Part shown: in pieces, positions 7,054-7,846 of the stretch | Position numbering within the stretch: the first letter of the stretch is position 1 | Layout of the letters: each line of letters opens with the position of its first letter | Origin: Girardia tigrina | Lineage: Eukaryota | Assembly: GCA_001938485.1 (NCBI GenBank) | Contig: MQRK01226176.1 | Coordinates: 12,366-68,402, forward strand | Length of the DNA stretch: 56,037 bases | Reading direction: 5' to 3' | The notes under the pieces: generated by a model | Databases searched by the model: none | Seen by the model: only the letters and a program-made list of their open reading frames with translations | Told to the model about the DNA's origin: nothing | Program-made: the position numbers and the translations under genes

Positions 7054-7846
7054 TGTTTGAGAATATAAAAGAAAAAAAATATATTGAAATGTTTGAGTTT
7101 CGAAAAATTTGTGTTTTAGTGATTTTGAATTTTGTGAAAAGAAATGTAATGAAAAATGTAAAAAAAAGGAAAAGAAATTTGATTAATTTGATTATGTGTC
7201 TTGTTTTATTGTTTTATTTTAATAATTAGAAATTTGATAACCAATAAATTTTTNNNNNNNNNNNNNNNNNNNNNNNNNNNNNNNNNTAATTATATTAAAA
7301 GATAATTATATTAAAGATTAATTATATTAAAAGCAACCGCTCGAACGGGATTTAATGAAATTTATTATTCCATCAGAATATTGCAGAAGAAAAAATTTCA
7401 ACATGCCTTGGCCTTTAACGAGGGAACTTTACGTTAATGGATCTCAAAAATTAATGATAAATGCATTTAAATTGACAATAGCAAGTCAAGCTTTTTGGAA
7501 TCTGTTGCAATCGGTTGGCAGAGATGGAAAATTGAATTTTAANNNNNNNNNNNNNNNNNNNNNNNNNNNNNNNNNNNNNNNNNNNNNNNNNNNNNNNNNN
7601 NNNNNNNNNNNNNNNNNNNNNNNNNNNNNNNNNNNNNNNNNNNNNNNNNNNNNNNNNNNNNNNNNNNNNNNNNNNNNNNNNNNNNNNNNNNNNNNNNNNN
7701 NNNNNNNNNATTTTCCAATTGGTTATGTTGACTGCAGTTCTTGTTTATTGAAAACAATATGTATGTTGAAATCTAAAACGAGAACAAGATACGACCTGTT
7801 GAGCTCTGGGCAAGGCTGCCGCGCTCAAACTGCCGCTCTGCGATCA
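7054..7846 (+). mobile_element. LTR-like cassette, copy 1, carrying BTB/POZ-like ORF
   Basis: Starts TGTTTGAG, ends GCGATCA; TSD TCTAT (7049-7053 / 7847-7851); near-identical to 10194-11561; contains N gaps. Confidence 0.85.

Follow-up and report, generated by a model that had tools for sequence, protein, structure and literature searches.

BEL/Pao retrotransposons consist of paired LTRs enclosing a Gag with a triple Cys-His box, protease, RT, RNase H and integrase (Sinbad, PMC554778; survey in PMC3118150). The element described here has in common with them the domain order, DUF1759, Peptidase_A17, DUF5641 and the presence of solo LTRs; unlike the elements in the available passages of the two papers, however, its gag frame reaches over the PBS into the LTR, fragments of host mRNAs are present and a ubiquitin ending in Gly-Gly stands before Gag. 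The capture of host mRNAs is known from LTR-mediated retrocopies, which contain partial spliced transcripts, with several genes joined through template switches at microsimilarities, and which can spread further; one such case involves a Pao element, BATUMI (Tan et al., 2016; PMC5131818). In the parts of that study available, the captured sequence replaces part of the internal ORFs, whereas here it is the LTR and leader that hold the capture, gag-pol is retained, the captured piece is often in the phase of Gag and its spread is in the form of solo LTRs. In cytopathogenic pestiviruses, as described in the passages available from PMC8310069, captured host ubiquitin, even when N-terminally truncated and located behind other host sequence, is cut by host hydrolases to give an authentic viral N-terminus. 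Those are sporadic recombinants of an RNA virus in which cleavage was shown, whereas the ubiquitin described here is clade-wide and long diverged, and its cleavage is what we infer.

ORF starts or host sequences within LTRs are found in yeast Ty1 and in MMTV sag. The ORF of Candida Tca5 also starts within the LTR (PMC4139406), and Cassandra carries 5S rDNA in its LTRs; in the material available on these four systems the content is fixed, with no swappable protein-coding cargo and no ubiquitin linker. In the Burro elements, giant Gypsy elements of planarians, host-like domains, some of them linked to ubiquitination, are fused into the polyprotein (PMC6431247). As far as the accessible text describes them, these are Gypsy elements with an N-terminal Gag and whole accessory domains, in contrast to the truncated scraps found here upstream of a ubiquitin-Gag junction. 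Our literature searches, covering listings and abstracts, returned no natural ubiquitin-Gag fusion in a retrotransposon; Repbase Reports, which may describe one (including a BEL-family entry cited in PMC3118150), and most subscription journals lay outside their scope. In the accessible part of a Dugesia genome preprint (10.64898/2025.12.11.693146) Pao and ubiquitin go unmentioned. Within the partly available literature searched, LTR elements that capture mRNAs, ORFs starting in LTRs and ubiquitin used by viruses as a processing signal are known one by one, and no account came up that combines them in one clade.

The DNA analyzed here, hereafter the window, is a stretch of 56,037 nucleotides from Girardia tigrina, belonging to an AT-rich eukaryotic assembly of 1.43 Gb. 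It contains two units, at 7054–7846 (+) and 10194–11561 (–), which a preliminary description had considered independent insertions of a cassette encoding a BTB/POZ-like protein. Both copies are present, with TG…CA ends and unlike 5-bp TSDs (TCTAT and AAGCC), and both are solo LTRs of a BEL/Pao retrotransposon, representing two subfamilies; this identification is based on the TG…CA ends, the TSDs, the 3′ LTRs that follow a PPT, the PBS next to the LTR end and the relatives with Pao domains. On how these LTRs are organized and used, the reading that we regard as moderately probable is that spliced, truncated BTB and PP1 scraps lie in frame with a downstream ubiquitin-Gly-Gly and Gag, that this leader is likely translated and likely cut by deubiquitinases, and that its content would therefore be nearly free to change. 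Against the leader reading it must be said that L206, the one full-length element with a flanking TSD that was examined, has no BTB and its frames are broken.

Copy 1 (7054–7846, +) belongs to a short subfamily and resembles the 3′ LTRs of L035 and L058, which are preceded by a PPT and DUF5641. Its left TSD is at 7049–7053 and the right twin at 7847–7851; N stretches occupy 7254–7286 and 7543–7709. A host-derived stretch (7369–7402, +) precedes the BTB ATG, its junction at 7394/7395 being devoid of a 47-nt GT…AG segment present in the host gene. The reading frame (7403–7846, +; 148 codons) is stop-free to the LTR end where readable, the BTB fragment being readable at 7403–7542 and the remaining frame partly N; in its 3′ part the end of a second LTR type is joined in frame to a PP1-type tail. 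Copy 2 (10194–11561, –) belongs to a long subfamily and is similar to the 5′ LTR of L091, with its TSD at 10189–10193 and the twin at 11562–11566. Its frame (10194–10868, –; 225 codons) goes from the ATG to the LTR end with no stop seen and 65 N, and includes a truncated BTB fragment of 65 codons (10674–10868, –), captured from a host BTB-BACK-Kelch gene, and a decayed PP1/PPP phosphatase fragment with altered catalytic motifs (10356–10487, –; placed by means of the equal-length copy L002). The real length of copy 2 is about 950 bp, which is also that of a gap-free sister. The nominal 1368 bp include a step duplication of 416 bp around a 50-N gap (11000–11049), adjoining which 11050–11415 (–) repeats 10634–10999; the duplication shows 0 differences over 321 compared bases and is most likely an assembly artefact.

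The two copies are 95.5–99.2% identical across three main alignable blocks, and the three substitutions quoted in the preliminary description (MPWPL/MPWLL, NAFKLT/NTFKLA and VGRD/VDRD) are found in the sequence. They do not, however, differ by a few substitutions only, since they represent two LTR subfamilies with frames of 444 and 675 nt. As to the absence of stops, none was seen in readable bases, but 167 of the 444 nt in copy 1 and 65 of the 675 nt in copy 2 are N, where stops cannot be checked.

Both insertions are hosted by a decayed Gypsy pol (5397–10178, +), with RT at 5397–5669, RNase H at 9340–9597 and integrase at 9687–9962. Copy 2, which interrupts this Gypsy element, is a true insertion, because in 14 of 14 other copies of this Gypsy host element the flanks are joined with one 5-mer. 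Copy 1 is nested inside a separate 3.2-kb insertion (about 6011–9200), which splits the Gypsy RT from the RNase H, joined in other copies.

DNA searches with the two ends of the unit gave 1504 and 789 first-look candidates in the genome, of which 40 were scored per end. Among the scored loci, 13 of 15 distinct both-ended copies have a 5-bp TSD. In the remaining two (L035 and L058) the LTR is preceded by a purine-rich stretch and by the C-terminal end of an integrase of Pao type (DUF5641, E 1.8e-5), which makes them 3′ LTRs; the repeat follows a PPT at further loci too. The other LTR end is often followed by a common 18-mer starting with TGG, at the position of the PBS. This 18-mer is matched exactly at 436 places in the genome, a reversed control at 0, and presumably corresponds to the initiator tRNA-Met; one pattern search for a host tRNA gene matching it found none. 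The full-length relative L206 has two LTRs flanked by one TSD and contains, in order, ubiquitin, DUF1759, RVT_1, Peptidase_A17 and rve, the internal Pfam families of L206 and L212 being DUF1759, RVT_1, Peptidase_A17, rve and DUF5641. The LTRs of L206 match the ends of the window units at 82–87% and contain the PP1 piece, and the BTB-bearing LTRs are tied to the same internal ends through L091 and through L035/L058. Three Cys-His boxes are found in the Gag of L126 (one broken by a stop) and two of the three are matched in L206. The element thus agrees with BEL/Pao in ends, TSD, PPT, domain order and Cys-His boxes. A DNA transposon of the Pack-TIR type and a Helitron were considered and rejected, the termini having only TG/CA in common and a 5-bp TSD, PPT and PBS being present; a segmental duplication was likewise rejected, on the ends, the TSDs, the PPT and PBS, and the empty site. 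The earlier view of a mobile and recent unit rather than a segmental duplicate is thus borne out by the TSDs, the empty site and the copy number, a 28-mer of the BTB piece having at least 267 matches in the genome when one mismatch is allowed and the host gene is counted.

Some further observations concern these relatives. The two LTRs of L206 (736–1582 and 8015–8727; 847 and 713 bp) differ by one PP1-repeat unit, which suggests recombination between subfamilies or a later deletion. The solo LTR of L002 (1060–2009) is skipped exactly (955 nt) by contigs of three public runs, corresponding to an empty form; as the flank is itself repeated, this form may represent a paralogous site and not an allele. 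In public sequencing runs, considered as assembled contigs only, 7 of the 11 listed contain part of the element and none contains half of its words.

The LTR frame, in which no stop was seen before the LTR end, crosses the PBS in 5′ LTRs and continues into ubiquitin-Gly-Gly and then Gag. In L091 it starts in an LTR with BTB, passes through ubiquitin (E 8e-24, ending in LRLRGG) and goes on, 663 codons in all with three N stretches, and in L140 it is gap-free over 275 codons from LTR to ubiquitin. L352, which has a second LTR type and the same BTB cargo, reads for 912 codons (20 of them X) through BTB, an HSP90 piece, an LRR piece, a divergent ubiquitin with Gly-Gly and a Gag-like region, and L239, with an unrelated LTR type, joins a VAC14 piece, ubiquitin and DUF1759 in 679 codons without long gaps. 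An independent metagenome protein likewise has ubiquitin, Pfam family PF00240, followed in one frame by DUF1759. Apparent long open frames listed in two of the searches were mostly runs of N.

The mechanism that we propose would begin with host mRNAs that are co-packaged and joined by template switching during reverse transcription. Transcription would start upstream of the LTR ATG and the LTR leader would be translated together with Gag-Pol; host deubiquitinases would then cleave after Gly-Gly, as in the pestivirus precedent, and free Gag. In this way the N-terminus of Gag would be fixed regardless of the preceding sequence and the leader would be selected only for phase and absence of stops, and mainly in-frame captures would survive, Gag-Pol being frame-dependent. 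The solo LTRs of the window would be leftovers of recombination, with frames running into flanking DNA.

The most serious competitor, which we nevertheless consider unlikely, is that the cargo of the LTR is untranslated, Gag being initiated at ubiquitin or at some AUG beyond the PBS, and that the frames are open only since the captures are recent. Start codons for such a scheme are available, as the L002 LTR has eight ATGs upstream of the BTB ATG, the leader contains in-frame Met codons and the ubiquitin of some families has its own Met; the ubiquitin of the window's family, on the other hand, has none. The preliminary description had named a lack of open frames in most copies as evidence against its own reading of the unit. 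Of 15 copies selected by DNA, just 7 can be read without interruption from the ATG through to the LTR end, the other 8 being closed before it, which would also suit untranslated cargo. So would the pairwise dN/dS of the PP1 piece (0.82–1.04) and of the leader (0.49–1.12), both of which evolve near neutrally. Against this competitor stands a strand comparison of frames crossing the PBS, performed on 70 PBS loci drawn from the top 100 of the list (30 from its head, plus 40 chosen in list order with most of those near contig ends skipped), 52 of which had 300 nt on either side; these loci share families and hence are non-independent. With a minimum of 70 codons on either side, a frame crosses the PBS in 13 of the 52 loci in sense and in 1 in antisense; the counts are 7 against 1 with a minimum of 100 codons and 16 against 4 with one of 50. 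Moreover, unrelated LTR ends meet the same leader in phase (L140, L183, L192 and L195), and the frame is kept through the changes that define subfamilies, namely a 120-nt deletion at a microhomology, a cyclophilin insert and a chimeric LTR join. An untranslated leader would also leave the retention of Gly-Gly without a reason.

For the BTB piece, HMMER found a single match among 1.84 billion representatives, a BTB-BACK-Kelch protein, and a host gene with this architecture, structurally a Cullin3 adaptor of the KLHL/KBTBD type, was found in the same genome. The LTR matches it over 190 of 203 nt (94%) and, farther upstream, over 42 of 46 nt, identifying the donor for which the preliminary description had proposed a search; the two blocks are separated in the host gene by 47 nt that start with GT and end with AG. 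Because the junction is joined in 69 fetched copies and the segment is present in 0, the BTB piece went through spliced RNA. The host segment shows similarity to the N-terminus of P0003; from its sequence it may be partly coding in the host, and splicing may have occurred in the host RNA or in the RNA of the element itself. As for microsimilarity, it is found at the secondary 120-nt deletion and, as a few common bases, at the BTB 3′ junction.

The last host residue captured is 99 (109 in a longer subfamily), within a host BTB match that spans residues 44–133, so that the N-terminal region of about 90 residues described as BTB-like is BTB-derived for only about 65 of them. More generally, the LTR piece comprises 65–75 residues of the BTB region without introns and agrees at 94% in DNA with the beginning of a gene for a KLHL/KBTBD-type Cullin3 adaptor; BACK and Kelch are missing from translated copies. 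The unit, in turn, is not a cassette for a BTB protein but an LTR whose frame has no internal stop and whose BTB is truncated. The host part missing from the LTR piece is the one that aligns to KLHL11 in the PDB and contains two predicted helices. A search with Pfam BTB, as the preliminary description had proposed, gave no match on the LTR protein. Structure prediction was uninformative, the single-sequence model having a pLDDT of 32 (the same region is of low confidence also in a host model from 3 sequences). The nearest ESM Atlas clusters were BTB, with a value of 0.91. When proteins were searched with that of the LTR as query, 1 of 297 candidates was a match, another LTR copy.

It could be argued that the fragment is retained for a function, for instance because it forms dimers with host BTB/Cullin3 adaptors, poisons them or helps particles to assemble. 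The ESM Atlas result, the 267 or more copies, the occurrence of the capture under at least three LTR-end types and the intactness of the piece, free of stops and frameshifts in 39 of 47 copies not selected by protein, all speak for it. So do a pairwise dN/dS of 0.38 (55 stop-free copies, including protein-selected loci) and the variants common to at least 5 copies, of which 8 of 16 are synonymous (p=0.027, counting two fixed differences). Shared and singleton variants, however, do not differ (Fisher p 0.21–0.69), the piece ends within the host BTB match without BACK, the KLHL11-aligning part with its two helices is missing, Pfam BTB finds no match and unrelated cargo occupies the same slot, all of which makes such a function improbable. 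The BTB piece is probably ordinary LTR cargo. A second type of solo LTR (L010, L013, L024, L026 and L029; 643–713 bp), with other 5′ and 3′ ends and a 5-bp TSD, contains the same BTB capture, and therefore cargo moves between LTR families.

First-look candidates for ubiquitin numbered 3445 in the genome, and Gly-Gly ends 51 of 63 distinct element-associated ubiquitins, 40 of the 44 that are frame-intact and 16 of the 20 whose identity to the host protein does not exceed 75%; in three of the four exceptions the C-terminus is scrambled in a frameshift-like manner. Pairwise dN/dS values (uncorrected, from non-independent pairs) are 0.09–0.31 for ubiquitin and 0.18–0.35 for the N-terminal part of Gag, and both are under purifying selection; for ubiquitin, separate host donor units may inflate the synonymous distance and lower dN/dS without selection in the element. 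In L239, L326, L334 and L336 the full Gly-Gly unit comes after the end of another ubiquitin unit whose last residues are Gly-Ser, and the capture was therefore from a polyubiquitin mRNA. A protein search with the ubiquitin region was dominated by polyubiquitins, and a metagenome scan with the ubiquitin-Gag protein gave, among the matches listed, one unrelated ubiquitin-domain ORF.

If the leader is translated, its ubiquitin might instead remain uncut and act as a built-in signal for ESCRT recruitment, solubility or turnover. Ubiquitin-Gag fusions support budding in retroviruses, which can be counted in favor of such a role. In one large family Arg74 is replaced by Cys, giving LCGG for LRGG in 13 of the 44 intact units, and this change may weaken cleavage; in many divergent families, furthermore, identity at L8, I44 and V70 is lost and the core kept. 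Nevertheless, Gly-Gly is located exactly at the Gag boundary even in families whose ubiquitin is only 42–75% identical to that of the host, and where a partial unit lies upstream it ends in Gly-Ser and the Gag-proximal unit in Gly-Gly; we therefore regard an uncut ubiquitin as very improbable and return to the cleaved leader. As a separate observation, L293 and L294 contain a host-identical ubiquitin followed by a degenerate unit, and in L294 the frame reads on to a motif resembling a zinc knuckle, which may represent a further, separate joining of ubiquitin to Gag.

BTB is not the only cargo. The remainder of the LTR frame consists of a decayed PP1 fragment in which the catalytic motifs are altered, and other LTRs contain cyclophilin and histone H2B pieces in frame. 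A Pfam scan was made on 147 of 375 stop-free sense segments, namely those of at least 52 aa that reach at least 150 nt upstream of the PBS, omitting four loci that were duplicates or already studied, and it revealed LTR-side cargo in 11 loci: PRMT, VAC14, AD+SH3, ODR4, MFS, tubulin and PP1. Seven of these 11 matches are in a frame that crosses the PBS and six agree with the longest downstream frame; the four that do not cross the PBS count in favor of untranslated cargo. In the same scan, ubiquitin was located inside the crossing frame in 9 loci. In an abundant family (L319, 3702–7235, –; L320, 360–3104, +) pieces of RNA polymerase subunit N and of HSP90 share one frame with the near-host ubiquitin that follows them and ends in LCGG; its Gag region contains CCCH-type zinc fingers with a weak DUF1759 match, and the common PBS is absent. 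That captures are favored at the RNA level, small-RNA silencing of the element then striking essential host genes as well and protein reading being incidental, fits the housekeeping nature of the cargo (PP1, H2B, cyclophilin, tubulin, HSP90, PRMT, RNA polymerase subunit), which abundance in the cell explains equally, and, predicting neither the frame phase nor the retention of Gly-Gly, is close to negligible.

A wider reading of the cleavable leader can be put forward tentatively, as one somewhat more apt to fail than to hold: in a whole clade of animal BEL/Pao elements ubiquitin would have been co-opted as a cleavable linker before Gag and the start moved into the LTR, the leader becoming an exchangeable cargo bay in which in-frame captures give free chimeric peptides, are copied to both LTRs and spread as hundreds to thousands of open-framed solo LTRs, a domain-shuffling engine. 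If true, a retrotransposon would use the protease system of the host to uncouple its capsid protein from the sequence that precedes it, and an unusually free capture of gene fragments without loss of autonomy would be explained. These LTRs would also be a concrete source of many scattered intron-less scraps of host genes in this genome, which inflate gene-family counts and mislead annotation, and they would offer many natural replicates for measuring the survival of in-frame captures and the usefulness of captured pieces.

Other features of the window lie around or away from the two LTRs. A short imperfect repeat is present at 8354–8510 within the 3.2-kb insertion, and a 68-bp repeat (5276/12232) shows no extension into Gypsy LTRs. 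Just left of the Gypsy RT is a transposase fragment of the Tc1/mariner type (4592–5233, +) with HTH_Tnp_Tc3_2 and DDE_3. The interval 29030–36484 contains near-identical direct and inverted repeats (29381–29643 and 32381–32643, 99%; 29641–29813 and 35949–36121; a 146-bp tandem), probably representing another young element or a rearrangement. Finally, 49778–50489 and 48137–49199 contain an imperfect inverted repeat of 700 bp and an AT-rich tandem array with a period of about 390 bp.
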